IMG/VR virus record: IMGVR_UViG_3300023179_000072
Location: 1 to 64,000 of that record
Strand: one strand, 5' to 3'
Source: a virus
DNA: 64,000 nucleotides
In this document: positions 28,795-64,000 of the stretch, piece after piece
Position numbering within the stretch: the stretch's first letter is position 1
How the letters are laid out: each line of letters starts with the position of its first letter
Position numbers and translations under genes: made by a program
The notes under the pieces: model-generated
Told to the model about the DNA's origin: nothing
What the model saw: the letters and a program-made list of their open reading frames with translations, nothing else
The model's database searches: none

Positions 28795-29806
28795 ATTTTT
28801 TTCTAATTGGTACTATTTATGTGAAAACCGGCCAAATCCCTATTAACATTCTTACAACACTCTTTTAATTTTTCAGGATTAATAATATCCCCTAAATGTA
28901 AAAGTGCTTCATATGTTTTATCATCAATAGTATCATACTTCAAAGCATCATGAAACAAATAGAAATATCTGGTTTCTATCTCTTTTAAAAGAGTATTAAC
29001 TTGTTTATTAAGATATACTATACTATTTAAATCGCCCACCATACTAATTAACCCTCTCTTTATACTTATACTTGAATATTTTCTTTAGAACTTTTTATAC
29101 TATCAATTTCCCAACTTTCCATATAAATAGTATTCTCATCAGGATACTGGATCATTAATTCGGTCAGTTTTATATAGCGTCCATTTTAGATTTACAATTT
29201 CTCATAACAATATTTACATTAACATAATAATAAGTTTTATCAGTTTCTTCCTGCATAATCAATGGACTCCCATTTGTTGCTGACTATCACCACGACCGCC
29301 AAATCCGAAGGATAAGGTGCGACAGTAAAGGGTTCCAATATAAGCCAGACTACTAACAATAGTCTTATAAAGTTGGTGTTCATAATACTGAGATTTTGTC
29401 TCAAATATTTTCTACCACTTTTACTATCACTATCCCACACACCAGTATACCATACTTTGCTACTGGTGGCAAGTCTTTTAGTTTCAAGGGTTTATGTTGA
29501 ATCATCTCTTTTACTATTTGATCATATTCTGGCTGACTATCGGCATGTGGGGCAAACCGGCTAGATAAGGTGGTACAGTTTAGGTATTCTCTTTTTTTAC
29601 AAAACCTATTATAATTTTTATCTAAACCCTTTATTTCCATATACTTACAACCCCACCCCCCTATCCATTATATCGGCAGTCTGGCCTTTGTAAATTAGAA
29701 AACTTTCGTAACCCCTTATGGATATTAAACTTACGACAAATTTTACGGGCCCCGGTCGTCACAAGTCCTTTGCTAGCAAGCACTTACGCACTTACCCACA
29801 ATCTAC

Positions 29807-29850
29807 AAAAAAAAGGAAGCCGCCCCCCATTTCTGAGGGACGGCCTCCCC
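29807..29850 (-). terminator. Intrinsic terminator after the DUF932 gene
   Basis: GGGGAGGCCGTCCC..GGGGCGGCTTCC followed by T8. Confidence 0.85.
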
Positions 29851-29877
29851 GAGCCACGCACCACGAAAGGAGAGCGA

Positions 29878-30825
29878 TTAGATAGCGCTCGCAAACTCGA
29901 CGGCTGTATTTAGAGCCTTGAGATTGTCCACGCCATTCTGGCCGAACCAGAGAGAGTCGAGGCGGTTGCTTACCGTGCGACCCTTAGTGTAGTTCAGGTA
30001 TTCGTTGAAACCGTTGTATGCAGCCCACCACGTTCCGCGAACCCCAACCGCACTCTGCTTCGGTCCTTCGACGAGCGTAAGAATCTCGTCCATGATGTTG
30101 CGAGTACGAGTTTTGATATCCTCGTCCGGGGTCTTATCAATCCCGAGCAGCACCTTGACGTACTTACGAACGTCGTTTTGGTTGAAGTCTTTCGACGCGA
30201 GGAACCGATACTGTTCCGCAGTCGCCTCAAACTGTGCATTGATATTGTCCATGATATCTCGCACATTTTCCAAATTCGTCTTGCTGGAACGGGTATGACG
30301 AATCCTAATAAGTGAACTCTCTTTGCTGCTATGAGCAGCGGCGAGGGTGTTCACACACACAACCCGAATCGGCGTATAGCCGACGCGAATCGACGTTGTG
30401 CCGTCGTGACTGTTAGATAGCAGGATGAACTTGCTCACCTCGTCACCCTTGACAATCTCGCAATTGTCGCGGTTGAGTTGAGCCAGTACCCAAACCTTCT
30501 CGCCTTCACTGAGCGAACCGGCAGTGTGCAGTTGGCACTCGCCAGCATCGAGGAACGGCTGGAACCAGTCGAACGCATCCTGATTTTGCAGGGGCGTATA
30601 ACGGGGGCCAACCACTCCCAGAACACGGTTGTCGGTCTTGCGGAAAGTCGCCTTGGCATTGACCTCCGTACCTTCAGCCGTAAAGAGCGGCTTGGTTCCG
30701 ACCTCCCAATCCAGACCAGCAGCGGTAATCGCCTCGCTGATCGACGGATTCTCATCCAATTGCGTACCCTCACCGTGCCAAGGGGTGGCACCGACGAACA
30801 TCATCTTTTCAACCATAGCGGGCAT
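29878..30825 (-). CDS. DUF932-family phage/plasmid protein (TIGR03299-like)
   Basis: PWHG-G, AGLDW-V, LGVVG-RY-PLQN, TAGSL-xG, NSHDG, TPIRVVC-NTL, HT; AAGGAG RBS; GC-rich. Confidence 0.92.
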   Translation of the reverse strand: MPAMVEKMMFVGATPWHGEGTQLDENPSISEAITAAGLDWEVGTKPLFTAEGTEVNAKATFRKTDNRVLGVVGPRYTPLQNQDAFDWFQPFLDAGECQLHTAGSLSEGEKVWVLAQLNRDNCEIVKGDEVSKFILLSNSHDGTTSIRVGYTPIRVVCVNTLAAAHSSKESSLIRIRHTRSSKTNLENVRDIMDNINAQFEATAEQYRFLASKDFNQNDVRKYVKVLLGIDKTPDEDIKTRTRNIMDEILTLVEGPKQSAVGVRGTWWAAYNGFNEYLNYTKGRTVSNRLDSLWFGQNGVDNLKALNTAVEFASAI

Positions 30826-30870
30826 AACTAACTCCTTCGTGTCTAAGAACTTTTGCTTTGATAGTCTAAG

Positions 30871-30896
30871 TATACTACTATTATCGGCTCTGTCAA
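30871..30896 (-). promoter_or_regulatory. Representative sigma70-type early promoter (TTGACA..CCGATAATA..TATACT)
   Basis: The same TTGACA-N-CGATAA-N-TAnAAT pattern recurs left of most 76-bp elements and at ~6750, 13450, 15860, 18830, 23300. Confidence 0.8.
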
Positions 30897-30987
30897 GGGG
30901 CAAACTTGCGAAAAAATTTCGTGACGCAAGTCGTTGGTATACAAGCACTTACGTCGGGCGGGGCCGCCCCGGTTTGCTCTAAGTCTT

Positions 30988-31485
30988 TTATGGTGAAGGA
31001 TTTAGGAGAGGCATACCATATTTCTTTTCAAAAAGTTTTGATGTTTCTGAGGTATACGCACACTCTTCTGGAATATAACAATACAATCCAACACATCTGG
31101 CCTTCGGATTATCCTCATGAATTGCTTGCTTAATCCATTTAAGAGTATCGCCAGAACAAATTAGATCATCCACTACAATATAACGAAAAGGAGAAACTCC
31201 CTCGATATGGAAATTACTATATCTTTTTTCATCAGGCTTACGAACAATCACAATGTTCTTATTCAGAATTTCACAAACTTGAGGGGTAACAACTAACCCG
31301 CTTACGCCACAACACGCAATACTATCAAAAGTATTAATTATCTTTCGTAGATTACATACTGCCTTAATGATTATTTTATTTCTATTCTTGTGATTTAGCA
31401 CCTGACAAGTATGAGAGGCTCCTTGGATAATTTGTCCATCTGCTGTGCGACGAACATCTTCAATACTTTGATTCATTATATTCAT
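30988..31485 (-). CDS. Phosphoribosyltransferase-fold protein
   Basis: IVVDDLICSGDT PRPP-binding motif; IVRK. Confidence 0.85.
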   Translation of the reverse strand: MNIMNQSIEDVRRTADGQIIQGASHTCQVLNHKNRNKIIIKAVCNLRKIINTFDSIACCGVSGLVVTPQVCEILNKNIVIVRKPDEKRYSNFHIEGVSPFRYIVVDDLICSGDTLKWIKQAIHEDNPKARCVGLYCYIPEECAYTSETSKLFEKKYGMPLLNPSP

Positions 31486-31581
31486 AAAAACGGATGGTAC
31501 GATTCGAACGTACTATAAGATAAGAAATAAAGAGAGATAATACTTGTCCCACCAAGTCGCATCCGTTAGAGAGAAGATCAA

Positions 31582-31779
31582 TTACTCATCATCTATTTCA
31601 TTAGTTAGATTATGATAGTAATTATCCCAGTTGGTGTTTTCAGAATCCTCATAATCTTCGCTATCTTCTTCATCCATCCATGGCTCATCGTTATTACTAT
31701 CATGATAGTAATTTTCGTCAATATAATCGGATTCTGCGACTAACTTGTGATAATCATATTCATATTCATTCAGATTCAT
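31582..31779 (-). CDS. Very acidic small protein
   Basis: D/E/N/Y-rich, 65 aa. Confidence 0.65.
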   Translation of the reverse strand: MNLNEYEYDYHKLVAESDYIDENYYHDSNNDEPWMDEEDSEDYEDSENTNWDNYYHNLTNEIDDE

Positions 31780-31828
31780 TTCTTCTCTCCTTAGACCGAT
31801 TATACACCAACTTTGCTAACTTGTCAAG

Positions 31829-31901
31829 TGGACCCTCTGGGGCTCGAACCCAGAACCAACGGATTAAAAGTCCGCTGCGCTGCCAATTGCGCCAAAGGTC
31901 C
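31829..31901 (-). tRNA. trnK: tRNA-Lys (TTT)
   Basis: GCGGA-CTTTTAA-TCCGT; GGTTCGAGCCC. Confidence 0.93.
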
Positions 31902-31938
31902 GTTTAATTAGCATACCACTAAAATTTTTTTTGTCAAG

Positions 31939-32010
31939 CAGCCCTATGGAGGATCGAACTCCAATCTCCGGGATGAAAGCCCGGTATACTAGCCATTATA
32001 CGATAGGGCC
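31939..32010 (-). tRNA. trnE: tRNA-Glu (TTC)
   Basis: CCGGG-CTTTCAT-CCCGG; AGTTCGATCCT. Confidence 0.92.
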
Positions 32011-32039
32011 ACATCGCAACTCAATCGTCAGCCTCCGAA

Positions 32040-32115
32040 TAGGGCGTCAAGGAGTCGAACCTTGCTCATGAACTGCTTATAAGACAGGTGACCACTACCG
32101 GCGGTCGCACGCCCC
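32040..32115 (-). tRNA. trnI: tRNA-Ile (TAT)
   Basis: GGGGCGT/ACGCCCT acceptor; CCTGT-CTTATAA-GCAGT; GGTTCGACTCC. Confidence 0.82.
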
Positions 32116-32251
32116 ATACTTCAATCATACAATACTTATCGGCACTTGTCAACCAGATACTTGAAAAAATCCTAAGTCGTTACGAGATAAGAACTTACGT
32201 CAAATTCGGCCCGCCACATTTGCTCTAAGTCTTTTATTTCCAACAACTTAG

Positions 32252-32331
32252 TGGTTGGTTAGGGACTCGAACCCCCGAAGCCGAAGCACCTGATCTACAG
32301 TCAGGCCCATTTGCCGCTCTGGAAACTCACC
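32252..32331 (-). tRNA. trnY: tRNA-Tyr (GTA) with two acceptor-stem mismatches (possibly degenerate)
   Basis: CCTGA-CTGTAGA-TCAGG; variable arm; acceptor GGTGAGT/ACCAACC. Confidence 0.75.
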
Positions 32332-32340
32332 TATATATAA

Positions 32341-32427
32341 CAGAGGCCGAGAGAATTGAACTCTCACCGGTTTTATCCGGCCCGCTTTAGCAAAGCGGTG
32401 CAGCAAACCAATATCTGCCTGACCTCT
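32341..32427 (-). tRNA. trnS: tRNA-Ser (GCT)
   Basis: CCGCT-TTGCTAA-AGCGG; long variable arm; G73. Confidence 0.92.
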
Positions 32428-32435
32428 AAATATAA

Positions 32436-32517
32436 CTGCTCGGGCTGGACTTAAACCAGCAAGTCTTTCGACGGTTGATTAACAGTCAACTGCGTTTATC
32501 AATTTCGCCACCGAGCA
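32436..32517 (-). tRNA. trnN: tRNA-Asn (GTT) with an atypical long variable arm
   Basis: TGCTCGG/CCGAGCA, GTTGA-CTGTTAA-TCAAC, variable hairpin GTC-GAAA-GAC, T-loop TTTAAGT. Confidence 0.85.
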
Positions 32518-32522
32518 TCAAA

Positions 32523-32594
32523 TTCCGGAGTCTGGGTACGATCCAGAAATAAAAGGGCCAAAACCTTTTGTGATACCAGTTTCACCACTCCGGA
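32523..32594 (-). tRNA. trnQ: tRNA-Gln (TTG)
   Basis: AAAGG-TTTTGGC-CCTTT; T-loop ATCGTAC. Confidence 0.82.
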
Positions 32595-33116
32595 TCATCT
32601 TCTACATTCTCTGCCATTTCCTCTGTTCATGTTCTTATATGTATCTGTTAATGAGTGACAATTTGGACACAGTATCTGTAAATTATCTTCTTTATTATTT
32701 TTATAGTTACCATCCTTATGATGAATTTCTAGTGGACACTTATTCGTATTTGGATTAATTTTATTCCATCCACACTCTTCACACTTTCTACCTCGTTCTA
32801 TCAATAAAAATTTTTTGATATAGCGTCTTACTGTTCCATTATTTTCACATCCATCATCTTTTCCAAGTTTCCATAACTGTATTTTATTATTATATTGAAA
32901 TATGTTCTGGCATTTAATACTGCAATAAATTTGTCCTTGACCTTTAATTAGATTGCTACAATTTTTACAATATTTAATCTTTTTATTGCGTTTTTTAAAT
33001 AACTTGTTATTTACTTTAGCAGCACAACTACGAGAGCAATAATTTTTTGATGTTTTTTTAATCTCTGATATTTGTTTATTAAATTCTTTATTGCAGCAGT
33101 TACATTTAACTTTCAT
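32595..33116 (-). CDS. HNH endonuclease inserted in the tRNA cluster
   Basis: YCSRSC/YCSIKC repeats; CEECG..LEIHHKDGN..NN..NL..LCPNCHS. Confidence 0.9.
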   Translation of the reverse strand: MKVKCNCCNKEFNKQISEIKKTSKNYCSRSCAAKVNNKLFKKRNKKIKYCKNCSNLIKGQGQIYCSIKCQNIFQYNNKIQLWKLGKDDGCENNGTVRRYIKKFLLIERGRKCEECGWNKINPNTNKCPLEIHHKDGNYKNNKEDNLQILCPNCHSLTDTYKNMNRGNGRECRR

Positions 33117-33191
33117 TTTTTGTTTCTCCTTTTGATACGAATATATACACCAAAAGGAGAACTATTTACCGTTTTTTATTTCAATTCCCAA

Positions 33192-33264
33192 AGCCGGTAG
33201 TAGGATTTGCACCCACGACATTCAAATTACAAATTTGACACTCTGCTAACTGAGTTATACCGGC
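33192..33264 (-). tRNA. trnT: tRNA-Thr (TGT)
   Basis: TCAAA-TTTGTAA-TTTGA; T-loop TGCAAAT. Confidence 0.88.
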
Positions 33265-33267
33265 AAT

Positions 33268-33456
33268 CTACATATCATACTCTTGACGCCAAGCCTTGTC
33301 AATGTCGCGTCGTGTTCGCTGACGCTTGGGCCTGTTGTCCATAGTGGTATCCCGATGCTCCTTGTGACCCGTAGGAACTTGCCACTGTGGCCTGACCTTG
33401 AGTTTGATATGGTTGCGGCGTGGTCGCATATCGTCGTTGTTGTGGAGCGTAATCAT
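33268..33456 (-). CDS. Small basic protein (paralog of 44984..45154)
   Basis: RP-W...GH..H....DNRPKR-RTR. Confidence 0.7.
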   Translation of the reverse strand: MITLHNNDDMRPRRNHIKLKVRPQWQVPTGHKEHRDTTMDNRPKRQRTRRDIDKAWRQEYDM

Positions 33457-33618
33457 GATTTCATCTTACCTAAAAATTTTGCGTTGTCAAGTGCTTTTTT
33501 GGCGTATAATATCCCGTATACTTGTATTTTACACTATAGGGGACAGAATGTCAAGATGAAGAAATTTCAAAATGTGAATGCTTATGTAGGACGTGTCATC
33601 ATATAGACAGACATTATT

Positions 33619-44280: not shown

Positions 44281-44470
44281 GTCATCACTCTCTCTTTCTC
44301 TCATCATTCTACTATCTATTATCGTCAAATGCAAGAGGGAAACTTTAATCTTTCAGTATTGCAAGGATTGTTGTAAAGTATTGGTAAATAAAGACTTATG
44401 GCAAAATAGGCCCCGCCCCGTCAGCCCTAAGTGTTTTAACACAAAGGGTTTATGACGAGTACAGATTTAT

Positions 44471-44701
44471 TCAATCAAAATCCACAAAAATAATCTGATG
44501 ATATCCACGAGGCTTAATAGTCAAACCACTATCATAATCTGTGGTATCAGACTTAACACCCGTCATACCAACCAAAGCCTTAGCCCGCCTAGTAATCTTA
44601 TGCTGAGTAGCGTCGTTCTTCACTGCAAAATCATAACGCTTTACCCAACCATAATTAGGCTCACCACCAAAAGTATCAGTAATCGTTACGGTCGCTTTCA
44701 T
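44471..44701 (-). CDS. Phage protein (TDTFGGE-NY-WV-R family)
   Basis: Recurrent motif; AGGAG RBS. Confidence 0.75.
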   Translation of the reverse strand: MKATVTITDTFGGEPNYGWVKRYDFAVKNDATQHKITRRAKALVGMTGVKSDTTDYDSGLTIKPRGYHQIIFVDFD

Positions 44702-44983
44702 TTTCGAACTCCTTGTTATCAAAAACCAAATCACTCACAAGATAAGACGCCAGAACACCAAACACAAAACCTAAACCAAAAATAGTATAACCATCCATGG
44801 CCCTTTTCCTTTTAATTTACCAGATAGGTAATCAAACACCCTCCAATAAAACTTGCCAACAACACCATTTTTTCCATAAAACTCATTCTTGCACCATTCT
44901 ATATTAGAGTTATCGACATGTCAAGACCACCAACTTTAGGCTGACTATGGCCACCTTCGCCAAATCCGAAGGATTAGGAGAGA

Positions 44984-45154
44984 CTACCAACCATCATTCA
45001 TCGCTTTACGATTCTTAGCCCCACGAGTTCGGAGGCGCTTGGGACGATTATCGTGCTGACCGCTACCCCCAAGGTGGGGATTATGTCCCTTACCAATTTC
45101 CCATACTGGACGAATATTCAGCACCAGTACCATAGGCTTTTTTCGTTTGCTCAT
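44984..45154 (-). CDS. 56-aa basic protein (not in the ORF track), paralog of 33268..33456
   Basis: MSKRKKPMVLVLNIRPVWEIGKGHNPHLGGSGQHDNRPKRLRTRGAKNRKAMNDGW. Confidence 0.7.
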   Translation of the reverse strand: MSKRKKPMVLVLNIRPVWEIGKGHNPHLGGSGQHDNRPKRLRTRGAKNRKAMNDGW

Positions 45155-45297
45155 GTTCTCTACTATACCATATTATCGACAATCGTCAAGCACAATGTTT
45201 AGGAAATCTTTTTGATGTAAAGTGTGAGCCCACAAGGACTTGTGTCAAAAACGGCCCGCCCCCCGCGACGTAAGTCTTTACATCACAAGGGTTTATA

Positions 45298-45507
45298 TCA
45301 CCAATCTGATTGGTCAAAGTCCAGATCAGCATCTTCTAGATGCTCGTCTTGCTCATCGTAATAATCGTCATCATCTTCCGTAGAATAGTTATCGGAGTGG
45401 TAATCGTCGTATCGCTCTGCAATCTCATCATACATATGTTCAGTGTCGGCAGTCCAGCCGCCGATGTGCGATTCCATGAACGAGTCGAGGAAAGAATCTT
45501 CAAACAT
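45298..45507 (-). CDS. Very acidic small protein
   Basis: D/E-rich, 69 aa; GGAG RBS. Confidence 0.7.
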   Translation of the reverse strand: MFEDSFLDSFMESHIGGWTADTEHMYDEIAERYDDYHSDNYSTEDDDDYYDEQDEHLEDADLDFDQSDW

Positions 45508-45686
45508 GAGCCTATCTCCAAGTGGTGGTGTTACTGAACTTCGCTTAGTCTACATCTATTATCGTCGCTTGTCAAGCGCATTCTTGAAAAATTTTTTACT
45601 ATTCGTAAACCATTGATATATAAGCACTTACAACTAGCGCGGTCCGGCCCCGTTGCTACAAGTGCTGTAGCAGCAAGGGTTTACGT

Positions 45687-46376
45687 TTAGTAATCGCCGC
45701 AAGTATCCAAGCGTACAGGCTCGCTTCTAAATGAACATACGTTCAGTCCGCTAGCAGCAGTTACAGCGTCAAGTTGTATGCCTAGAAACTCTTGTCGTTC
45801 CATAGCATTAGTATCATTATGATTTGGCAATTCCAAAACAAACTCATGCCAGAGCGGCATTTCATAGCCGTGTTCATCTTCCACTACAATATCGTAAAAA
45901 CGATAGTTATTCATTAGTAATCTTCTCCATAAAAGGAACCATCATCATTATCATAGTATCCGTAATCTTCGTTCGTTCCATAACCTGCGGACGCAAGACC
46001 GGATTCATGATCTCCGTCCATGCTATCATTGTAATCGTCATTCCAGAAATTATCTTCTGGCGGAGCAGGCGGAATATCATTATCGTCCTCATAAAAATCA
46101 TTGTAATCGTCGTAGTTCATATCATCCTCATAAGCGTTATCGGGATCGAACAGAGGATCGGGGTGACTCATAGACTATTCTCCTTTTTCAAGAAACATAC
46201 CACACTTCGCCGCTATCATCAACCATCTCTTCCGGCTCAAACTCATCCACGATGCCGATCACATCGGCCCAGTCCCAAAAATCCACATTGATACTGTAAT
46301 CGTCAATCGGTTCCACCGTACCCTCATCACGCATTTCGGACAGAATCCGGTTCACATCCTCAAAATCGTTCAGCAT
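45687..46376 (-). other. Three acidic small genes (45687..45914, 45914..46171, 46188..46376)
   Basis: 45914 contains DSMDGDHESGLASAGYGTNEDYG. Confidence 0.7.
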
Positions 46377-46564
46377 GGTAGCGTTCTCCGTTGTGATGCT
46401 CTGAGTCTACACTATTTATCGACCATTGCAAGAGGCAAACTTAGAAAATAATCTTGTGCCAAACAAAAAAAATATTATTTGTTGTAAGTTGTTGTAGGAT
46501 AAGCACTTACGCTTAGCGGGGCCTGCCTTACTGATCATAAGTTCTTATGCAGCAAGGGCTTATG

Positions 46565-46861
46565 TCAACATACACTTTCAGCCTTTACCGACAGTTCCTG
46601 TGCCATAGCCTTACCCATCTTGAACTTGACGGTCTTGCGAGCCTCAATCATAACGGTTTCGCCAGTACGAGGATTACGAGCCTTACGAGCCTTAGATTCA
46701 ACCACGTTGAAAACACCAAAATTACGCAGTTCGATTCGTCCTTCACTGACAAGAGTAGCCATCAGTTCATCCAAAGTGTGCTGGACTATGGCCTTAGCCT
46801 GCAAACCAGTAATGCCACACTTCTCAGCAATCCGTTCGGCCATATCACGCTTAGTATTCAT
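46565..46861 (-). CDS. IHF/HU-family DNA-bending protein
   Basis: TK..GRIELRNFGVF..ARKARNPRTGE-V-I..V-FK-GK; resembles planctomycete IHF subunits. Confidence 0.93.
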   Translation of the reverse strand: MNTKRDMAERIAEKCGITGLQAKAIVQHTLDELMATLVSEGRIELRNFGVFNVVESKARKARNPRTGETVMIEARKTVKFKMGKAMAQELSVKAESVC

Positions 46862-47065
46862 TCTGCTCTCTCTTTCTTGTCTGATCATTCTATACTTATT
46901 ATCGACCAAAGTCAAGCCCCAGTATAAAAAAACTTTGCTTATAATCTCGTAAGATTTCTTATGGCAAATACCGTGCCAAAGCCGTAAGTCGTTAGCCAGC
47001 AAGCACTTGCGGCAAATCTGGCCCGCCGGCCTTGTCCTAAGTGTTTTAGGCTCAAGGCTTTATGT

Positions 47066-47377
47066 TCAAGGACCAATAACCATTCCACTATAGAACGGGA
47101 ACACCTGTTCACCTTTACTCACAAACCACTTAAAGTTTTTCTGAAATACAGTATACGGACTATACTGATTGATTCGATCCTTCGTGGTACTGGTTTGCCA
47201 GCCCCCATTGCTGAGGGTATACGTTCCATCCTCATGGATTCTCACCACGCAAGTACGATGCAGCGTGATGCCCACGCTACCATCACTCAAAATCTCCGCA
47301 TAAGTATTATTACCAACCTTACGACGGTTAGCATTACGCTTACCACGAACCATAGAAACTGCTTGTGAGTGAGTCAT
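47066..47377 (-). CDS. Phage protein (GGW-T-TTK-R-N family)
   Basis: Recurrent motif. Confidence 0.75.
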   Translation of the reverse strand: MTHSQAVSMVRGKRNANRRKVGNNTYAEILSDGSVGITLHRTCVVRIHEDGTYTLSNGGWQTSTTKDRINQYSPYTVFQKNFKWFVSKGEQVFPFYSGMVIGP

Positions 47378-47397
47378 ATTTACCCTTTATGTAATTT

Positions 47398-49552
47398 TCA
47401 AGAAACGCCCATGTATGAAGAGTTCTTCACACAATAATCATAAAACATCTCGTTCAACACTTCGCTATAGTTTTCGTAAGTCAAACGCTTCTTAGAACAA
47501 GTAGACTGACACTCTGCAAAAAACTTTCCAGAACTAACTTCATACACAATGGTGCAAGCGTAAGACTCGCTACCCCAAATCCTAGCCTTGCAGTCGATAA
47601 ACTTCTTGAACATCTTTCTCTCTCTTTCTTCCTTCTCTATCTCTTATATCGACATTATACCGCAGCATTCTTTAGTTGCAAGATAAAACTTTCCTTGCAA
47701 TGCTGTAAGGTTTAGCTCAGCAAAAAGCGTGCCAAAATAGTTGGTGTCATAAGTTGTTGTGTGGCAAGTACTTACGTCAAATCCGGCCCGCCATATTTGC
47801 TGTAAGTGCTTATACAGCAAGGGCTTATGCATTATGCTGAAACTTTGTTAAGCATGATCATCAACCTTCCCAATGGAAAGGTGAAACTTCAGCATTATTT
47901 GCCATAATAGCCTGATACTGATCCTTCAAGGCTTCAACCCTTTCACGAGAACCGGGCTTTCCAACCTTGAGAATCATGGTATCCTCACCACCAATCAGAC
48001 GAGGATCAGCCTTTTCATCCCTAACCTTGCCAATACGACGTAAAGCCTTGCGATTGAATTTCAGCACCTTTTCACTGCTGATCGGACCATACACATGGTT
48101 TGCCAAAGACGGCTGATGACGAATAGCAATTCCAACAAACGTCATACGAGCCTGAATCTTAGCCTTTTCGATGATAGGGAACTTGGTTTTCATTTTTCTT
48201 TCTCTCTTTCTTGTATTTGGATTATAGCAGGATTTTTTTGGATTGCAAGACAAAAGTTTCCTTGCAATGTCGTAAGATTCAGCAGAGCAAATGCTGTGCC
48301 AAATATTGAGCAAATCATGTTGAACATAAAGTGTTGCGGCATAAAGACTTACATCAAATCCGGCCCGCCCGCTTTGCCGCAAGTCTTTTAGCGACAAGGG
48401 GTTACGTTCAATCCCCACTCAGGAAGGGGTATCGCTCTTGAAGCACCCTATCCGTCTCATCCCACACAGCGTCCTGCTCGACACGGACGCAGTAGTCGTT
48501 CAGCTTCTGGTAGAACGTAGCCGCATCCCGAAGCAAAACATTTTCGGGAAAATTGTTGATTCGTACGAAAAATCCACCACCCCCCGTTGAGGTGATATCA
48601 AAACGCACGTCATCATGCATCATATCATAGATAGCGTCGATGATTTCCTGAGCCGTAACGATTCGACCAAGCATTTCTTTTTCCTTTTCTCTCTTTCTCT
48701 TTCCAGAATTGTATGCAATTTTTCCGCCGCGTCAATCCCTCAAACGAGGGATCGGTTTTCGCTAGCGATTTTCGCATAGAGAGAATCGTACACAGTACGA
48801 TGAACACAGTCCAAATCAACACTCTTCAAGGTATAGTAGCCGACAATATTGTCAAAAATATGGTACTTGTCACCTTCCTTGACAATCGTAAAACCCACCC
48901 GATAGGCGTAATAGTTGATCTTTGCACGAATAGTGCTATACTTCGGCATCTTGCGAATCTTTCTCATGTTCTTCTCTCTCTTTCTCTTTCTTCTCTACTT
49001 CTTATATCGACATTATACAGGGTCTATCTTGAGTTTTCAAGAGAAATCCTGAAATTTTTCTGTCAAGAAATTTTGACAAAACTTTTTGGATTTTTCATAT
49101 GCTTTGGCATACCATATGCTAGAGCAAAAAGTGTGCCATACTAGCAATTCGCCCTAAGTCTTTACGCTGTAAGTACTTACATCAAATCCGGCCCGCCATA
49201 TTTGCTGTAAGTGCTTATACGACAACGGTTTATGGCTTCACAAAATTTCGTATAAGATTTCTGTTAAGCATTGAGCACCTGTACAGTAGTGTATGTTACA
49301 AAAACGCTAAACACTAACAACCCTATAATTTCAGGCATTCCTACCTTCTTTCCAACCAGCAAACACCAAAGTAAACTCCTTACCGGGATATTTGGCAGCA
49401 ATATAAGCACGAGCAGTCTCTTCACGATTGTCGGAAGCAGACACACCCTGAACACCAACACCATCAATCATAACATTCCAAATCCTACGCTTAGGAAACT
49501 TCACCCTAGGCAGGCTTCGGATAAACTGATTCACACTAGTAACCTTTTGCAT
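47398..49552 (-). other. Small cassette genes (47398..47613, 47861..48193, 48408..48674, 48740..48967, 49331..49552)
   Basis: Each is preceded by a (GA)n purine leader and a promoter. Confidence 0.7.
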
Positions 49553-49825
49553 TTTCTCTCTCTCTCTCTCTTTCTCTACAAACCAATCTACCAAACTTTT
49601 TCCGCCGCGTCAATCCCCCTAATGAGGGATAAATTTTCATCACGGCATTGTTACGCCAACAATCAAACCGAAAATAGCCACAACGCAAAAAATGCAAACC
49701 ATAAACGAAACCCTTTCTTTCTTCTCTATCTCTTATATCGACATTATACCACGGTATTCTTTAGTTGCAAGAAAAAAATTTCCTTGCAATGCTGTAAGGT
49801 TTAGCTCAGCAAATATTGTGCCAAA
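47632..49825. repeat. ~105-bp near-identical direct repeat of a promoter block (47632-47736 and 49721-49825)
   Basis: CTTCTCTATCTCTTATATCGACATTATACC..TTGCAAG..CTTGCAATGCTGTAAGGTTTAGCTCAGCAAA..GTGCCAAA. Confidence 0.9.
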
Positions 49826-50024
49826 TATTTAATTCAATAGACTCGCCATAAATCCTTTACCAGATTAGACTTACATCAAATGTGGGCGTCCATATTGATC
49901 ATAAGTCTTTATACCTCAATAACATAGGGGTGGTTTTTCTGTTTTTTTTACCCTTTTCCCAACCCAGACTAAAAGCGGAGGGTGGTTGATACGCAATCGA
50001 AACCAATAAAATATAATGTATTAC

Positions 50025-51185
50025 CTAAACTATCCCTGTAGACCCTTGTTTCTTACTCTTTCTTTGTCTTTTTAGCTGTCTATAAGACAAGCTGAATCTT
50101 CTGTTTCTATTAGAATCCAGTATATCAGGATACTTTTCTTTTAATTTAAGTTCCTTTTCCCATCTGTACGCAGCATATGATACTTTTTTACCGCACCATA
50201 TTTGGTTACCACTCCAGCGGTCAGCAAAATATTGCGTTAACTTGTATAAATCTGCTTTAAACTCTATCCACTTTTCCTCAAATTCTTTTGGAAAATCCCC
50301 GCGTTTATCAAGACTGTTTTGTCTATGGCTTCCTTTTTCTAGATGATCAGGATTAAAGCACCGACCGTTACCACATTTATGTCGTATTAATTCGGGATAC
50401 TCTCCAGTTTTTTCCCAATACGCAACCCTATGCTTTAATAGTGTCTTGGTTTGACCAGAGTCTTTGGATTCGCCAATAGTTACCTGCATTCTAGCATAAC
50501 CACTAACATGAACATCATTACTTTCTTTACATCCCGTCTCATTATTTATAGTATAAAATTTTGTATAAGAATTATACGTAATAGCTTTTTGTAGCCATGG
50601 TCTCAAATATTCTTCGTTATTGGAGGCCCACGTATTCAATAAGCAATTTTTATTGTATTTATTTAGATAATGTGTTTCTTTCCTCAATAGCTCAGCCTCA
50701 CTACACTGCTCAATAATAGCATACTTGATAGTACAGTCTTTATTATTAAAATAAGACAATAACAATTTTGAATTATGCTTATTATGTTTTAAGTCTCTGC
50801 AATGTTCTGTTAGTCTTTTTTTAATGTTTATACTACTACCTATATATAGTTTGATATCATTAATTTTAAAAGCAGCACACGAATCATTTTTGTCATATTT
50901 CCAAACAAAATAAATAGCATAGACACCAGAAACACTATTTTTCATTCGTTTGATATTATTAATAGTTTTCCATTGTTTGATCACAGAATGATCTACATTA
51001 GTTTTTATATCTCTTAGCTTAAACATATTACTCAAATATGCTTTGCTCACATTATATTTTTTTATTAAACTATTAGTAGTAGCACCAGCTGCATATTCTG
51101 CTATTAATTTTCTTTCTTGGTTGCCATTTAATATGGTTTTAATTTTGCGTTTAGTTTTGTCCTTACTGCCTTTTGGTCTTGGCAT
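50025..51185 (-). CDS. Homing endonuclease with GIY-YIG and His-Cys-box/HNH-type domains
   Basis: GVYAI..YIGSS..R..H..E; HRVAY..RHKCGNGRCFNPDHL..N..D; N-terminal PRPKGS AT-hook-like. Confidence 0.8.
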   Translation of the reverse strand: MPRPKGSKDKTKRKIKTILNGNQERKLIAEYAAGATTNSLIKKYNVSKAYLSNMFKLRDIKTNVDHSVIKQWKTINNIKRMKNSVSGVYAIYFVWKYDKNDSCAAFKINDIKLYIGSSINIKKRLTEHCRDLKHNKHNSKLLLSYFNNKDCTIKYAIIEQCSEAELLRKETHYLNKYNKNCLLNTWASNNEEYLRPWLQKAITYNSYTKFYTINNETGCKESNDVHVSGYARMQVTIGESKDSGQTKTLLKHRVAYWEKTGEYPELIRHKCGNGRCFNPDHLEKGSHRQNSLDKRGDFPKEFEEKWIEFKADLYKLTQYFADRWSGNQIWCGKKVSYAAYRWEKELKLKEKYPDILDSNRNRRFSLSYRQLKRQRKSKKQGSTGIV

Positions 51186-52870: not shown

Positions 52871-53818
52871 TTATCTTATATAAATTTCTACTCTTGCAGA
52901 CCTATTGATACCTGTACTATTATTACAACAATTAATTATATCACCAGCTGAATAATTACCAAAATTAGAATCCAGACCAATACCATTGCTAACATCATTG
53001 GTTCCTGCCCAATAACCCCAACTATTACTAAGGGTGGATGGAGAAGAATAATTTCCTTCTCCATTGTCATTCCAACCAAAACCCCATCGTACTCTTGCGG
53101 TACCATAGTTCCAAAAGGGTCTTGGATAACTTTTAAAATTGAATCCATAAAAATTGATATCTTTCTGTGTTGCAAAAATATTATTCCCCCAGTTTGGAGA
53201 ATTTGTTGCTAGTCCTTTAAAATATCCTCCATAGTTTCCTCCTGTATTAACACCACCAGTATTAAAGGTGCCAGCAGTATTAAAAAAATCGATTAAACAT
53301 ATTCTATTTCCATCAAAGAAATTATTCTCCAGCCATGTCCAACAATTAAAAGGATTAGGAGTTATTGCTCCACCCCCATTATTTACTAAAATATCCGGCC
53401 AAATAGCCATAATATCTTTAGCTTGAAAAGTATTCATAATATGAAATTTAGCATCACTATTATTTCTATTAGCATCACTATGATTTAAAGTATTAGCTTG
53501 TGTCCAATAACTAGAAATATAATTAAATTTAGTACTACCCAACGAAGCTTTCATAGCCAACATCCATGCTCCTCCATCAAAAGATGAATCCATTAAACAG
53601 TATGTTAAATTATTATTAATTAAATAAACTCCGTTAGGAGCTGTTGGTAACATATTTTTAATTTCTAAAGCATTATTAAAACTGATTGACCCATTAGTTG
53701 TTGGTGTTATATTATTTGATTCTATAGAATATGGACCATTTCCACAATTATTAGCTGAGTATACTCTAAATTTATAATTAGTATTATTACTAAGATTATT
53801 AATTTTTAACATTTTCAT
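52871..53818 (-). CDS. Partial FN3 plus fibrinogen-C-like domain protein
   Basis: YKFRV-xN..G-GPYS; NGVY-I..YC-M...GG-W-L. Confidence 0.75.
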   Translation of the reverse strand: MKMLKINNLSNNTNYKFRVYSANNCGNGPYSIESNNITPTTNGSISFNNALEIKNMLPTAPNGVYLINNNLTYCLMDSSFDGGAWMLAMKASLGSTKFNYISSYWTQANTLNHSDANRNNSDAKFHIMNTFQAKDIMAIWPDILVNNGGGAITPNPFNCWTWLENNFFDGNRICLIDFFNTAGTFNTGGVNTGGNYGGYFKGLATNSPNWGNNIFATQKDINFYGFNFKSYPRPFWNYGTARVRWGFGWNDNGEGNYSSPSTLSNSWGYWAGTNDVSNGIGLDSNFGNYSAGDIINCCNNSTGINRSARVEIYIR

Positions 53819-53836
53819 TTTTATTTTTCCTTTTTT

Positions 53837-56800
53837 TTATTTTGGATTTATAAAAGGAGCATCAGATGGTGTAAAATTATCATTATATCTTGCAACACCC
53901 TTGGTTATACGGAATTCATCAAAATAACCCAGAATATAACCAGCATTTCCGTTATCCCCACCTATTGCTAATGGCAAATTATCATTAATATTAGCTGATG
54001 AAGATCCTCCACCACAATAAATTCCATTAATATACATTCTTATTGTGCCATTATCTCTAACAACTGCGACATGATTCCACTGATTAGGAACAACAGAAAT
54101 ATTGCCAGGTAAAAAGCTTGATGTTTCATCAATCCACATTAAGACGTTATTTACACCATTATTATAATTAGTATCTAACAAGAAATACCAACCTCCAGGA
54201 TTAGGTGCTGTTGCGGTAGATGCTATTGATCCCCATGTGTAGTACCCCGATATGCTTCCTGTCCAATATAACCAACATTCTATTGTAAAGTTTTGAGTTC
54301 CAAATTGTATAGAAGAACTATTATTTACTATAGCTTTTTTACCCCATGAAGAGCAATCTAACGAATTATTGAATTTGCCTATTTGGTTTGTTATAGCAGC
54401 ACCATTTATAGCATTTACAACATTACTATTAATGGAACTATCAATCAGATTGGTATCTCCATTACCGCTATCCATGTGTAACAGTAGCGAAACATTATTT
54501 ATATAAGGATCAGGATCACTGAATGGAACATTTGAAGGATTACAATAGTCGGGGAACGGCGCGGTGGGCGGAACGAAATTGGAGGTGTAACGGGCCATTG
54601 ACGAGATGCGCAAATCGTCGATGAAACCCGAAAAATTAAACCCGTAGTTCGGGGCACTCCCAATCGAAATGCCGCTATTCGTGACGGGGAACGTCTGAGT
54701 GCTCGTGCCGATTAACGTGCCGTCCTGATACATCGAATTGGTGCCGACATAACGAACGCACGCTATGTGCGTCCATGCGTCAACGCCAACGGAACCGCCC
54801 GCAATCGCCCCTGTGAGTGCGTTGTTCCAGTAGAGCGTTCCGTTTGGCGTCACGTACACGTTCATGCCTCCGACACCACCACGGATGTTGCCGGCCTCAA
54901 AAAAAGTTTGTACGCTACCACCACCGGCGGCGCGTCGCATCCACAGTTCAATCGTAAAATCGCCCGACCAATCAAATCCCGGCAGCGACGCAGACAGGTA
55001 ATCGCCGATGCCGTCGAACGCCGCGGACTGAGATCCGAACTTGCATTGCGCCGACGATTGCGTTGCGTTGCCATTCGCCGTGACGGTTTTGGGAGTGCCG
55101 CTGGAATCGGTAAACGACGATCCGTTGCCTTCCATGTGTAACAGTAGCGAAACATTATTTATATAAGGATCACAATCACTGAATGGAACATTTGGTGGAG
55201 TGAAATTATTAGTATAAACTGCTTTGCTAACTATTCTAAGTTCATCTATATAACCATTTAACACATACTGGGATGCAGGATGTTTTCCTATTATTAGAGG
55301 AGCATTTTCTGTTACAGAATAATATGAGCCACTAGCCTGACTTTGTAGGTTTCCATCTACAAATAAAGATGTTAAATTACCATCGTAAACCACTGCTATA
55401 TGATGCCAAGTTTGGGAAGATGGTTGGTTTATAGCTATATTTCCCCATGATGGACTACCTGGATAAGCCATAGCATTTAACCACTGCCAGTATAAAGTAT
55501 TATTTTCTACAAACAAATTGTATTGTAGTCCATTTACATAATTCCACTCACCTTGTGAAGCTCCTTTTGAGATTAAAACCTTATCTGTATTATCTATAAA
55601 ATTAACAAACATTTCTATAGTAAAGGGTTGATTATTTAATCCGAGATCAAACTTAGTATCATCTGGTATCGAAATATAAGAATCATTCGTACCATTTACA
55701 TATAAACTAGATCCTCCAAACTTGCTTTGATTCGTACTAATTTTTGCATTATTATATGGTGTTATAGATGAATTATAACAACTACTATCAATAAAGTTAG
55801 TGCTTCCATCATTACCATCAAAATGTAGAAGTAAAACACAATCTTGACATTGATTTGAGGTCGGGGTTGGGGTTGGGGTTGGTGTAGCGGTTGGAGTTGG
55901 TGTAGCGGTTGGAGTTATATAAGCATCACAATCACTACTGAATGGAGCAGTCGGAATTGCAATATTACTGTCTGATATTAAATTAAGTGCAGAGCCTGAG
56001 CCTATAGTAAGGCGTAATTCATCAATATAACCAACAAAAGATGGAAAATAATTTTCTCCACCATACCCAATATAGGTAGGCTCAGTATAAAAAGTTATAA
56101 TACTATTATTAAAACCACTACCAGCAAAATTTCCATTTATATACCAACGCCATATATTAGATGCGCGAGAAAATGCAATATAATTCCATTGATTAACCAC
56201 AACCTGACTATTAGCGGATAAATATAAATCGTTAGCATTAGGAAGATTATTTATATGAATTTTAGGAACTAGAGAATCAATATGAACCACAAACTTTGCA
56301 TGATCACCTGATCCGCCGCTAGTTGCATAAATTCCATAACGCCCAGAAGATTGTGTTGGATAAATCCAGCATTCGAAAGCTAAATCACTATCATTAATAT
56401 TAAAATCAGAATCATATTCACTATAGATCCATCCATTGTTGGTAATCATAGAATTACCAAATTTGGCGAACCATTTAAATTGTACTGGATTACCCGGTTC
56501 AGACAATATTAATGTTTTTGGAATATTACTAGAGTCTATAAATACATTACTTCCATCCTCACCATCAAAATGTAGAAGTAGAACACATTTACATTGATTT
56601 GGGGTCGGGGTCGGGGTAATGTATTCGTTCCAAATCGATCCACCATCAATACTATATTCTACTATATATTTTAGTGGTGATTTACCACTATTAATATCTG
56701 ATATTTCATCCCAAATTAGATACGCTTCGCTATCACCCGCTATTGTTAGGATATTTGTAGGAGCTTCTGTTGGTGTTGTACAATTATTAGAATCAGGAAT

Positions 56801-58000
56801 GACACTATTACTATTAACACTATATTTAGTATCATTAATATTATATATAGCTCCAATTCTAAAAATATAAGAAGTTCCATTATTTAAATTTTTAAGTAGA
56901 ATATAATTTAAAGTTGGATCTATATAATTTAAATAGTTATTCCAACTAATACCATTATTAATACTATATTGTATATTATATCCTAATACTTTTAATATAT
57001 GATTATTAGGAAAGCTCCAACTTAAAAGAGCACTAGTATCTCCACTTTCCGCCTCCACATTGAATGGTATATCCAACTTTACTTCACAGGACTCATAAGA
57101 TCCTATACCAGCACTATTTATTGCAGCTACTCTAACTAAATATGTTTTATCAATAGTTAAATTATTAAGATTAATATTTGTATTTATAGAATTATTAATA
57201 TAATCAACCCAATCTATTCCATTATTATTAGAATACTGTATACTATAATTAATAATTTCTCCGCCATTATCATCATCTGGTTTAGTCCATAATAATGATA
57301 TACTGTTATTAGAATCAGCATGAGCAGATAAATTAGTAATATTATTTGGAATCGATATTTGTGTTCCTGTTGATGGAAATGGAGCAAGAATACTATTTAT
57401 ATTAAAATTATCGTTATATCTACATGATCCTACTCCTTTTGTAATTCTTAACTCATCTATATAGCCATTAAATGTTTCACTACCATAACTATGCATACCA
57501 GTACCAATATAAACTTCTCTAGAGTACCCCAAATCAGAAGCTGCTGCCCCACCACTAATTGATAAAGATTGGTTACCATTAATATATACGCTAATATTTC
57601 CATTATTTCTCACCAATGCTAAATGATTCCAAGCATTTAGGGTCACACTATTAGCTCCCCAATTCCAAGATGTGCCATTAAAATATAATTGGTCTCCATT
57701 TGTGCCCATTCTCCATAATAATCCACTATCATATCGTCCTATAGAAATAAGAGTTCTCCAATTAATATTATCTAAAGGATAAATCCACATCTCCACTGTA
57801 AAATCTTCTGTTCCAAATCCAAAAGCAGGATCGCTTTCTATAAAAACATACGGAGATCCACCGTTAGGAGCATAGTCACTTCGTCCACTTAGTTTTAAAG
57901 ATCCCGATTCTGTACCAAATCTATCTTTATTCTTACTTATAAAAGCCCCATTATATAAAGTAACATTTTTAGGGGTTATAGATGAATCAATAATATTCAT
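53837..58000 (-). CDS. Large LamG (ConA-like)/FN3 repeat protein, probable tail fibre or virion adhesin
   Basis: Repeated LLLH-DG..DSS..FTIE-W..W-H-A..G-IDE-RI modules, FN3 domains and PT linkers. Confidence 0.85.
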   Translation of the reverse strand: MNIIDSSITPKNVTLYNGAFISKNKDRFGTESGSLKLSGRSDYAPNGGSPYVFIESDPAFGFGTEDFTVEMWIYPLDNINWRTLISIGRYDSGLLWRMGTNGDQLYFNGTSWNWGANSVTLNAWNHLALVRNNGNISVYINGNQSLSISGGAAASDLGYSREVYIGTGMHSYGSETFNGYIDELRITKGVGSCRYNDNFNINSILAPFPSTGTQISIPNNITNLSAHADSNNSISLLWTKPDDDNGGEIINYSIQYSNNNGIDWVDYINNSINTNINLNNLTIDKTYLVRVAAINSAGIGSYESCEVKLDIPFNVEAESGDTSALLSWSFPNNHILKVLGYNIQYSINNGISWNNYLNYIDPTLNYILLKNLNNGTSYIFRIGAIYNINDTKYSVNSNSVIPDSNNCTTPTEAPTNILTIAGDSEAYLIWDEISDINSGKSPLKYIVEYSIDGGSIWNEYITPTPTPNQCKCVLLLHFDGEDGSNVFIDSSNIPKTLILSEPGNPVQFKWFAKFGNSMITNNGWIYSEYDSDFNINDSDLAFECWIYPTQSSGRYGIYATSGGSGDHAKFVVHIDSLVPKIHINNLPNANDLYLSANSQVVVNQWNYIAFSRASNIWRWYINGNFAGSGFNNSIITFYTEPTYIGYGGENYFPSFVGYIDELRLTIGSGSALNLISDSNIAIPTAPFSSDCDAYITPTATPTPTATPTPTPTPTSNQCQDCVLLLHFDGNDGSTNFIDSSCYNSSITPYNNAKISTNQSKFGGSSLYVNGTNDSYISIPDDTKFDLGLNNQPFTIEMFVNFIDNTDKVLISKGASQGEWNYVNGLQYNLFVENNTLYWQWLNAMAYPGSPSWGNIAINQPSSQTWHHIAVVYDGNLTSLFVDGNLQSQASGSYYSVTENAPLIIGKHPASQYVLNGYIDELRIVSKAVYTNNFTPPNVPFSDCDPYINNVSLLLHMEGNGSSFTDSSGTPKTVTANGNATQSSAQCKFGSQSAAFDGIGDYLSASLPGFDWSGDFTIELWMRRAAGGGSVQTFFEAGNIRGGVGGMNVYVTPNGTLYWNNALTGAIAGGSVGVDAWTHIACVRYVGTNSMYQDGTLIGTSTQTFPVTNSGISIGSAPNYGFNFSGFIDDLRISSMARYTSNFVPPTAPFPDYCNPSNVPFSDPDPYINNVSLLLHMDSGNGDTNLIDSSINSNVVNAINGAAITNQIGKFNNSLDCSSWGKKAIVNNSSSIQFGTQNFTIECWLYWTGSISGYYTWGSIASTATAPNPGGWYFLLDTNYNNGVNNVLMWIDETSSFLPGNISVVPNQWNHVAVVRDNGTIRMYINGIYCGGGSSSANINDNLPLAIGGDNGNAGYILGYFDEFRITKGVARYNDNFTPSDAPFINPK
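54471..55194. repeat. 64-bp direct repeats (54471-54534 and 55131-55194) flanking a GC-rich LamG module
   Basis: 62/64 identical, exactly 660 bp apart, in frame. Confidence 0.92.
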
Positions 58001-58010
58001 TATTTTATCC

Positions 58011-60746: not shown

Positions 60747-60762
60747 TTGTTTTATATTAATC

Positions 60763-63700: not shown

Positions 63701-64000
63701 AAAGATGTGGTATAATTAGTTGAAATTATATCTAATAGAGTAGGAGTATTACTAGGCGTTATTGTAATTGTGGGTGTTCTGGTATTTGTTGGTGTTGTTC
63801 TTGGAGTGTGGGTATTCGTTGGCTCTATAAATGATGTACTTGTGGGAGTTAGTCCGGGAGTAGACGTACTTGTGGGAGTTAGTCCGGGAGTAGACGTACT
63901 TGTGGGAGTTAGTCCGGGAGTAGACGTACTTGTGGGAGTTGCAGTAGATGTTCTTGTTTGAGTTCTTGTATTTGTTGGTGTTCTTGTAGAAGTTTTAGTT
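60763..64000 (-). CDS. LamG repeat protein, 5' end beyond the window
   Basis: Frame stays open from the window edge through a Thr/Pro linker into three LamG modules and a DDDSG-type beta domain. Confidence 0.85.
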   Translation of the reverse strand, partial: TKTSTRTPTNTRTQTRTSTATPTSTSTPGLTPTSTSTPGLTPTSTSTPGLTPTSTSFIEPTNTHTPRTTPTNTRTPTITITPSNTPTLLDIISTNYTTSLLMHFDNINPDGTFIDSSINNFTVTPYGGVILDNNTKYLGSSSLYIPGVDNSYLLIQDSINLDLGLNNKPFTIELFINLEDNIDQFLVSKGASINQWNSINGIQYTLSIENENIYWRWLNSDNSYGEIFASVPSIQSWHHLAIVYDGNLTSLFIDGEIQTTSNGSYYSVSENAPLIIGKHPIAGYQYTLLGYIDELIINNNKAIYISNFTPRTTQLENYDPYNSNVSLLLHMNGINGTTTLYDSSLNNNIVNGINGASITNNLGKFEQSLDCSSSGKKAIVNNSSSILFRTNDFTIECWLYWTGSISGSYTWGSIASTATAPNTNGWRWILDTNNNNGLVWIDETSGPLNGNISIPSNEWTHIAVVRSSGVIKMYVNGIYCGGGSSSADINDGLPLAIGADNGNDGYILAYFDEFRITKGISRYDNDFIPPNNPFDNSDPNGIPASLLLHFEGQNNTNNFVDSSKYQLPITCYGNVKISEDENKFGLSSGYFEEKDYLLIDKNIVIDEKEDFTIEFWIYDTRPKDLYGGQPGIVFIGNHSLWLHDDYRGLFFFGNDNYILGGGHTITAQGYTWNHICLVRDSNIISMYLNGILLESTVYSSGFSGQVRIGNEFRGYIDDLRICKGVAVYTYNFIPSNSSLNQFVFRDSRKKQNIVSDLIAIESNNTIDINITLYNSLDFIHDNIDHYIVEYEMIEKINIYPCNAIQLSVNRSSCIPLTYNNIGYLDISGWIPPCANYSDNNSIWFYLIVPESGSVIIQGIGIIDGAMAVYSGSDCNNLNLITCDDDSGPGYQPLISLSDRTPGETLWIQYWKYGGGTGTFGICAFEEQIESTPTPTPSPSVSLTITPTKTSTPTPSNIPKGYRYLQYTSTSITESHHPRCSRIILTIDNIDVNVVVFTDDNCSDSGEIPGVGSSYTLDLGDGVIGLPTAAKIYSTYGDGVRGSNFTVSGSMDNITFTNIFIGNITSNGCGLITGNITTN
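63836..63940. repeat. 30-bp tandem repeat (3.5 copies) encoding a TSTPGLTPTS linker
   Basis: GTACTTGTGGGAGTTAGTCCGGGAGTAGAC x3 plus a partial copy. Confidence 0.95.

Follow-up and report, generated by a model that had tools for sequence, protein, structure and literature searches.

The first 64,000 nt of virus record IMGVR_UViG_3300023179_000072 (the window; the whole record is linear, 81,337 bp long and rated 58% complete) contain a run of small genes and tRNA genes, all on the minus strand at 29.4–50 kb, that is divided by copies of an element of about 90 nt. The distance from the element to the −35 box of the promoter downstream is phased with a period of 10.5 bp, and this phasing is our main new result. 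The best explanation, to which we give a probability of roughly 0.55, is a composite regulatory cassette similar to the promoter-early stem-loop (PeSL) cassettes of T4-like phages, in which the 90-bp part would be a putative phased protein-binding platform on double-stranded DNA (dsDNA) and not an attC or Xer site.

A repeated element and the promoters that follow it

A search profile derived from the dispersed-repeat family of the window identifies, in the whole 81-kb record, 21 full copies of the element (E 1e-7 to 2e-23) and one half copy, all on the minus strand at 29464–49929, and no copy outside that interval (Table 1). The coding-strand consensus is a quasi-palindrome, TAAnnCCTTG-n6-AAGnACTTAGGGCAAA, a GC-rich core, and TTTGACGTAAGTnCTT-n6-CAAnnACTTA; its first part can also be written TAAGTnCTTG-n6-AAGnACTTAGGGCAAA. 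It comprises four 9-bp boxes, arranged as two ~25-bp palindromes that are inverted to each other and flank the core. Spacing within the element is rigid, with almost no insertions or deletions (indels) between copies. For a 15-nt box pattern, 12 occurrences compare with an expectation of 0.04, and no exact 14-base core is common to most copies. The array forms a GC-richer island, its genes having 42.5% GC compared with 32% outside.

We gathered relatives through the terminase and through a DUF932 protein encoded at the array end (80 IMG/VR loci each). In 84 related metagenomic phage loci the element profile gives 551 matches, nearly always in the orientation of the genes, and across 41 relatives the array part averages 43% GC against 34% beyond DUF932. 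Five relatives are complete genomes of 223–244 kb, two of them with terminal repeats, and each carries ~17–20 elements confined to a single ~20-kb block. This makes the studied record a fragment of a ~230-kb phage genome and the array a trait conserved across the phage family. Public sequencing runs containing this DNA are lake, freshwater and pond metagenomes. Among isolated phages, 8 kb of the array has no megablast match and no isolate is close. The best isolate matches of the terminase, at ~25% identity, are Bacillus siphoviruses (distant Bacillus and other phages), none of them T4-like.

Near-consensus sigma70-type promoters are about twice as frequent in the block as expected (90 versus 46.5), with one after almost every element. 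The spacing, counted from the element's final conserved base up to the −35 hexamer, is 19–21 nt in 43, 30–31 nt in 122 and 39–42 nt in 44 of 364 copies. Counted once per cassette family, it is 19–21 nt in 18/78, 28–31 nt in 34/78 and 39–41 nt in 11/78. The periodicity of these spacings peaks at 10.5–10.7 bp (R = 0.82, a value reached by none of 5,000 random sets), and the spacing indels that survive are almost solely in ~10-bp steps. Phasing to one face of the helix is the classical signature of an upstream-bound protein that works with RNA polymerase on dsDNA. Such phasing has no meaning for an RNA signal or a recombination site, and suggests a promoter-coupled module that binds protein on dsDNA.

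The element conserves sequence, not structure. Among 374 distinct copies the information sits in the fixed boxes, with 2-bit columns at ACTTA, TAAGT, TAA and TTA. Mutual information between columns is at most 0.26 bits and forms no antidiagonal pattern. RNAalifold predicts a consensus with 0 pairs, and there is no covariation. For the global dyad, both local dyads and shifted registers alike, base-pair frequencies equal the product of the column frequencies, and a G.G mismatch is conserved in 261/374 copies. A local hairpin in fixed register (dyads summing to 64–66 or 144–146) was rejected on the base-pair frequencies. Individual copies do fold (z-scores −1.1 to −4.3), each differently from the others.

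In distant lineages both inner boxes are altered in concert across all copies, for example to AAGGGTTTGCG / CGCAAACCCTT in locus L055 and to AAGACTTTACG in L079. Lineage-specific box variants comprise ACTTA, CTTTA/GTTTA and GGTTTG types. Homogenisation of copies within a genome was rejected as the cause, because paralogous copies in one genome resemble each other no more closely than copies taken from different genomes do (identity 0.638 versus 0.635). Concerted change of this kind fits a co-evolving trans-acting factor better than it fits homogenisation.

Gene ends and cassette borders

A reading of the window from sequence only had placed eight stop codons 3–4 bp from a box of the element, and the list of open reading frames (ORFs) bears this out. 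The ORFs end at 36266, 37606, 40276, 45298, 45687, 46565, 47066 and 48408, beside copies of D3, the repeat family behind those box ends, that end at 36262, 37602, 40271, 45294, 45682, 46561, 47061 and 48403. Relative to the full element, the eight stops start 5 or 6 nt before its conserved TAA. It was also right that the stop of a phosphoribosyltransferase (PRTase)-like ORF (30988–31485; Pfam PF00156 match below cut-off) falls inside a copy (30964–31003), and that the end of tRNA-Tyr (32251–32331) adjoins the element: the tRNA lies directly before the conserved TAA at 32250–32248.

In the relatives, the upstream stop starts at −5 relative to this TAA in 68, at −6 in 31 and at −12 in 26 of 296 non-redundant copies; it is the element's own TAA in 18/296 and a conserved TAG inside the element in 38/296. 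Grouped by upstream cassette family, 20 of 58 families stop at −5 or −6, the TAA of the element serves as stop in 5, and 14 terminate within the element. Conserved stop triplets occupy at least two frames of the element (TAA at columns 14–16, TAG at columns 37–39). The abutment of stop codons is not chance: stops and the tRNA end abut the element because genes are packed flush to its 5′ edge and because it contains conserved stop triplets.

The proposal that promoter–gene–element units are exchanged as modules stands as far as borders and modules are concerned. When cassettes are written as strings of families for each locus, their order is conserved (... 3 4 1 x 2 0) apart from insertions, deletions and replacements of whole cassettes. 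High-identity breakpoints between relatives concentrate in the element. Ends of high-scoring segment pairs (HSPs; BLAST-aligned segments between relatives) at high identity (at least 90%) are 3.9-fold enriched in the element's 5′ half. Homology begins inside the element far more often than elsewhere, with 63 of 449 homology-begin points in element columns 0–40, and homology-stop points cluster at the element edge and just past the promoter. Precise borders are seen in the groups L004/L006/L007, L049/L054 and L045/L046: homology begins 18–21 nt into an element in L004/L007 and L004/L006, and in L006 and L054 additional genes sit precisely at the 5′ edge of an element, where they were inserted.

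The two halves of the element differ in what they track. Left halves of copies that have only the upstream cassette in common show a likeness of 0.736, and right halves of copies that have only the downstream cassette in common a weaker 0.685, against a baseline of 0.62–0.64 (0.622 for the left half). The left half thus follows the upstream cassette and the right half partly the downstream one, which places the junctions inside the element.

A putative protein-binding platform and its rivals

In the arrangement that we favour, the element would be the upstream half of a composite intergenic regulatory cassette of ~170 bp, ordered on the coding strand as stop codon, ~90-bp element, A/T-rich tract, near-consensus promoter of sigma70 type and then the small gene or genes that follow. 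The element itself would most likely serve as a multi-site dsDNA platform for one sequence-specific protein, of phage or host, and this candidate protein may switch, boost or insulate the ~20 promoters of the block together. Because the ~170 bp recur about every kilobase, ordinary homologous recombination between copies would yield gain, loss and replacement of whole cassettes with junctions in the element; the junctions are observed, the mechanism is putative.

Judged by layout, the closest known analogue is the PeSL cassette, in which a sigma70 promoter with an AT-rich tract is preceded by a stem-loop; it is repeated between orphan genes and has no dedicated recombinase (Arbiol et al. 2010, PMC2839356; Comeau et al. 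2014, PMC4122927). Breakpoints between relatives lie in that motif, and homologous recombination has been proposed (PMC2839356, PMC4122927). In both systems a GC-cored palindrome lies upstream of an AT-rich tract, which is followed by a near-consensus sigma70 promoter, both recur between the small accessory genes of one variable region, and both have indel and replacement breakpoints in the motif and no dedicated recombinase. They differ in that the phage here is not T4-like, as the terminase matches indicate, in that 90 bp with four conserved boxes take the place of a short G(n)-loop-C(n) hairpin, and in that the element is helically phased to the promoter. The PeSL stem-loop also terminates transcription (PMC2839356), whereas the present element is not a canonical terminator by sequence.

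If the resemblance holds, it would extend beyond T4-like phages the idea of regulatory cassettes that double as landing pads for gene exchange. Conserved in hundreds of metagenomic contigs, the element would be a recognisable regulatory signature of an uncultured family of ~230-kb freshwater phages and would delimit how a 20-kb block of unknown genes is divided into transcription units. With the array, control of phage promoters from one face of the helix would also become open to test.

A stronger version, which we put forward only tentatively, is a block-wide operator system in which one regulator would act at ~20 four-box operators of 90 bp, set at integral helical turns from host-type promoters. 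The whole compositionally distinct 20-kb block of early genes would then be switched or insulated at once, and regulator and boxes would co-evolve by lineage. If true, giant freshwater phages would have a regulatory architecture of a new kind, and its operators and promoters would make a ready set of orthogonal parts. Many sites bound by one protein are known from the stoperators of Cluster A mycobacteriophages, 13-bp asymmetric sites spread genome-wide and bound by the immunity repressor (PMC9283540, PMC6550527). Stoperators resemble the array in comprising many copies of one recognition sequence in short intergenic regions, often at gene ends and in fixed orientation to transcription, and in that both would allow one protein to exert genome-wide control. 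They differ in their short asymmetric sites, their spread over the whole genome and their identified repressor, whereas the unit here is a 90-bp double dyad limited to a 20-kb block and its binding protein is putative. We regard stoperators, like the REP sequences (repetitive extragenic palindromes) and bacterial interspersed mosaic elements (BIMEs) considered below, as looser analogues than PeSL.

Several points weigh against a phased protein-binding platform that also acts in cassette exchange. The fixed spacing to the promoter could in part be inherited from a single ancestral ~170-bp unit. Two relatives (L104 and L122) lack an element upstream of the array's first transcription unit, and several strong promoters inside and outside the array are also without one. 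Given these cases, the element may be needed only between co-directional units, which would also fit an insulator or a factor-dependent terminator. None of the conserved small proteins encoded in the array gives an informative match in Pfam or PHROG. Mosaicism is just as marked in the element-free DNA beyond DUF932, with 2.88 HSP ends per aligned kb compared with 2.17 in the array, and on these figures the idea that the array is hyper-mosaic compared with its flank was rejected. Descriptively, then, the element marks module borders, where junctions fall; because the element-free flank is equally mosaic, any role in promoting recombination is putative. Finally, in the left half of the element the native variable hexamer folds at −10.45 kcal/mol against −8.63 kcal/mol for swapped hexamers, a cost of 1.8 kcal/mol (p 8e-10). 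This matched-hairpin effect is slightly stronger on the transcript (coding) strand (−1.70 versus −1.24 kcal/mol), and may leave room for an RNA role at gene 3′ ends.

Such a role is the substance of the next alternative, an RNA-level signal at the 3′ end of the upstream unit. It could be a terminator or attenuator that depends on a factor, a site of RNase processing or a 3′ hairpin that stabilises the message, and parallels are known in REP sequences, in the RNase III sites of T7 and in the PeSL stem-loop. It would suit an element that always follows a co-directional gene or tRNA and adjoins its stop, and that can be absent upstream of the first unit of an array; the folding of individual copies and the matched left arm, as well as the terminating PeSL stem-loops, are in its favour. 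We consider it a live rival, though an unlikely one. The copies have no consensus structure, fold differently and do not covary, and the segment-swap test detected no matched pairing in the right half. No element has a U-tract, intrinsic terminators are not enriched (17 terminator-like sites versus 12.9 expected, only three of which touch an element), and no element matches an Rfam family at E ≤ 0.1. The 10.5-bp phasing to the −35 box would be left unexplained.

Much less probable is an enhancer or architectural array for sigma54 promoters, in which the boxes would be IHF/HU sites bound by the phage's own HU-like protein. Five exact TGGCAC-N5-TTGC motifs, which are sigma54 −24/−12-like, lie between element and sigma70-like promoter at 46.9–49.8 kb on the minus strand; they accompany only 5 of the 21 elements. 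The array does contain an HU/IHF-family gene in a cassette of its own (46565–46870, minus strand; PF00216, E 2e-27), and its product was the only DNA-binding candidate found among 28 array proteins searched against Pfam and PHROG. The gene has homologues in L087–L090, and a PF00216 protein was found in none of the five complete relatives, all of which have element arrays; the HU-family gene is an accessory cassette. The boxes contain CAA-N4-TTA, but only 3 of 84 match the full IHF consensus WATCAANNNNTTR. The five complete relatives have no clear sigma54 activator or enhancer-binding ATPase, only two weak AAA+ matches.

We think it highly improbable that the element is a non-autonomous mobile repeat, of the MITE (miniature transposable element with inverted repeats) or REP/BIME type, that spread through the block without a function of its own. 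REP/BIMEs, which are known protein-binding sites, likewise consist of imperfect palindrome pairs in alternating orientation around a linker and lie extragenically after gene 3′ ends (PMC3333891, PMC2817692). The present element differs from them in its unrelated boxes, in its coupling to a downstream promoter and in occupying one block instead of being dispersed. Its orthologous positions are conserved across hundreds of divergent contigs, its orientation is fixed, it is phased to promoters, no target-site duplications were seen in the copy alignments, and the five complete relatives encode no Y1 or REP-associated tyrosine transposase (RAYT; PF01797).

Least probable, and largely refuted, is the integron-like site suggested by the sequence-only reading, at which a tyrosine recombinase would excise and insert cassettes at a folded hairpin. 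Integron attC sites conserve a folded structure and not a sequence, and require the IntI integrase and a common Pc promoter that serves promoterless cassettes. Like attC sites, the elements are imperfect inverted repeats that bound cassettes and start at or near the upstream stop codon (at −5 or −6 in 99/296 copies), and relatives differ by whole cassettes. We looked for an integrase, a conserved fold and a common promoter and found none of them: it is the sequence that is conserved, each cassette has its own promoter, and cassette order is largely preserved. The sequence-only reading saw no recombinase in the window. The record has no PF00589 match, and none over the cut-off occurs in the five complete relatives. 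One complete relative has a single sub-threshold match (24.2 bits), and the five encode no serine recombinase or resolvase.

The likeness to Xer sites survives in part. The arms TTACGTCAAAT / ATTTGCTGTAA around a GC core are present, as is TTATGTCAAAT at 43476–43486, and they match the XerD half-site at 9–10 of 11 positions, but spacing and orientation are wrong. A dif site has two 11-bp arms with TTAT facing a central region of 6–8 bp (6-bp spacer), whereas the arms here are 12–14 bp apart, have their AAAT end next to the core and face away from it. Contigs from four lake runs, aligned to the array at 90% likeness, contain many joints, most of which have short sides; related phages are their probable source. 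Only one joint, in a single contig, links two non-adjacent elements at equivalent positions, 41658 to 30942. It would count in favour of this reading, but we treat it as anecdotal. Flush borders between genes and repeats, then, need not imply integron-type recombination.

Coordinates and neighbouring features

Table 1 Position of the array, its element copies and the sigma70-like promoters downstream of them (window coordinates)
Feature	Coordinates	Strand	Description	Basis
Whole array	29464..49929	-	~20 kb, small genes and tRNAs split by 21 elements
Half copy	29464..29502	-	left part only	profile, E 0.009
Element copy	29707..29789	-	final copy of the array, downstream of DUF932 gene; weak, with ambiguous orientation	profile
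Element copy	30919..31012	-	PRTase-like ORF terminates within	profile
Element copy	32168..32254	-	tRNA-Tyr 3′ end adjoins TAA	profile
Element copy	33955..34048	-		profile
Element copy	35251..35345	-		profile
Element copy	36178..36271	-	upstream stop −5	profile and stop mapping
Element copy	37517..37613	-	upstream stop −5	profile and stop mapping
Element copy	38603..38694	-		profile
Element copy	40188..40280	-	upstream stop −6, in frame with element TAA	profile and stop mapping
Element copy	40795..40888	-		profile
Element copy	41639..41729	-		profile
Element copy	43447..43540	-	carries TTATGTCAAAT (10/11 bases of XerD arm)	profile
Element copy	44368..44459	-		profile
Element copy	45210..45302	-	upstream stop −5; strong local left hairpin	profile and folding
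Element copy	45599..45691	-	upstream stop −6	profile and stop mapping
Element copy	46477..46572	-	after HU-like gene; stop −5	profile and stop mapping
Element copy	46979..47070	-	upstream stop −6; then TGGCAC-N5-TTGC, then sigma70-like promoter	profile
Element copy	47744..47831	-	top score; then TGGCAC-N5-TTGC, then promoter	profile
Element copy	48320..48412	-	upstream stop −6; then TGGCAC-N5-TTGC, then promoter	profile
Element copy	49148..49239	-		profile
Element copy	49843..49929	-	first of the array, downstream of GIY-YIG/HNH endonuclease gene; weak	profile
Sigma70-like promoter	30869..30896	-	TTGACA-16-TATACT, 30 nt past element
Sigma70-like promoter	32124..32152	-	20 nt past element
Sigma70-like promoter	35200..35228	-	30 nt past element
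Sigma70-like promoter	36116..36144	-	41 nt past element
Sigma70-like promoter	37469..37497	-	28 nt past element
Sigma70-like promoter	38559..38587	-	21 nt past element
Sigma70-like promoter	40135..40163	-	31 nt past element
Sigma70-like promoter	40743..40771	-	31 nt past element
Sigma70-like promoter	41589..41616	-	31 nt past element
Sigma70-like promoter	43398..43425	-	28 nt past element
Sigma70-like promoter	45162..45189	-	28 nt past element
Sigma70-like promoter	45547..45575	-	30 nt past element

Outside the array, eleven further near-consensus (at least 11/12) sigma70-like promoters without the element lie at 1–29000 on the minus strand, and none of this quality was found in the structural region at 50–81 kb. 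A second dispersed motif (families D8/D11), found at promoters that lack the 90-nt element, occurs at 29274–29324, 29527–29577, 37319–37392, 43176–43249 and 44919–44992; on the coding strand it holds an AATCC-TTCG-GGATT hairpin, which lies upstream of a TTGACA promoter at a distance of ~45 nt.

Nine tRNA genes (Lys, Glu, Ile-TAT, Tyr, Ser, Asn, Gln, Thr and Arg) lie within array cassettes at 31828–35471 on the minus strand, with an HNH endonuclease ORF (32595–33116) among them, and a tenth (Gly) lies at 25155. A gene for a GIY-YIG and HNH endonuclease (50025–51185) adjoins the array. One cassette contains a match to the Pistol self-cleaving ribozyme (35665–35727, minus strand; Rfam RF02679, 53.9 bits against a gathering score of 34.5), located 9 nt past the stop of a small ORF (35736–35984) and upstream of tRNA-Arg (35399–35471) in that same cassette. 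Another cassette (40890–41583, minus strand) has a strong promoter, no convincing ORF and no Rfam match at E ≤ 0.1; its parts at ~41257–41406 and 40968–41125 are 78–85% identical in many relatives.

Long ORFs are few in the first 50 kb, and an alternative genetic code was rejected as the reason. The last 1.3 kb of the record (80000–81337; L001 16000–17337) has 58–69% GC compared with ~31% elsewhere and may be an assembly chimera or a foreign end. At 52871–64000, on the minus strand, lie very large genes (315, 1413, 911 and at least 977 aa) that contain FN3 repeats and concanavalin-like (LamG) repeats, have PHROG matches of baseplate-wedge-like type and probably encode tail fibre or adhesin proteins.

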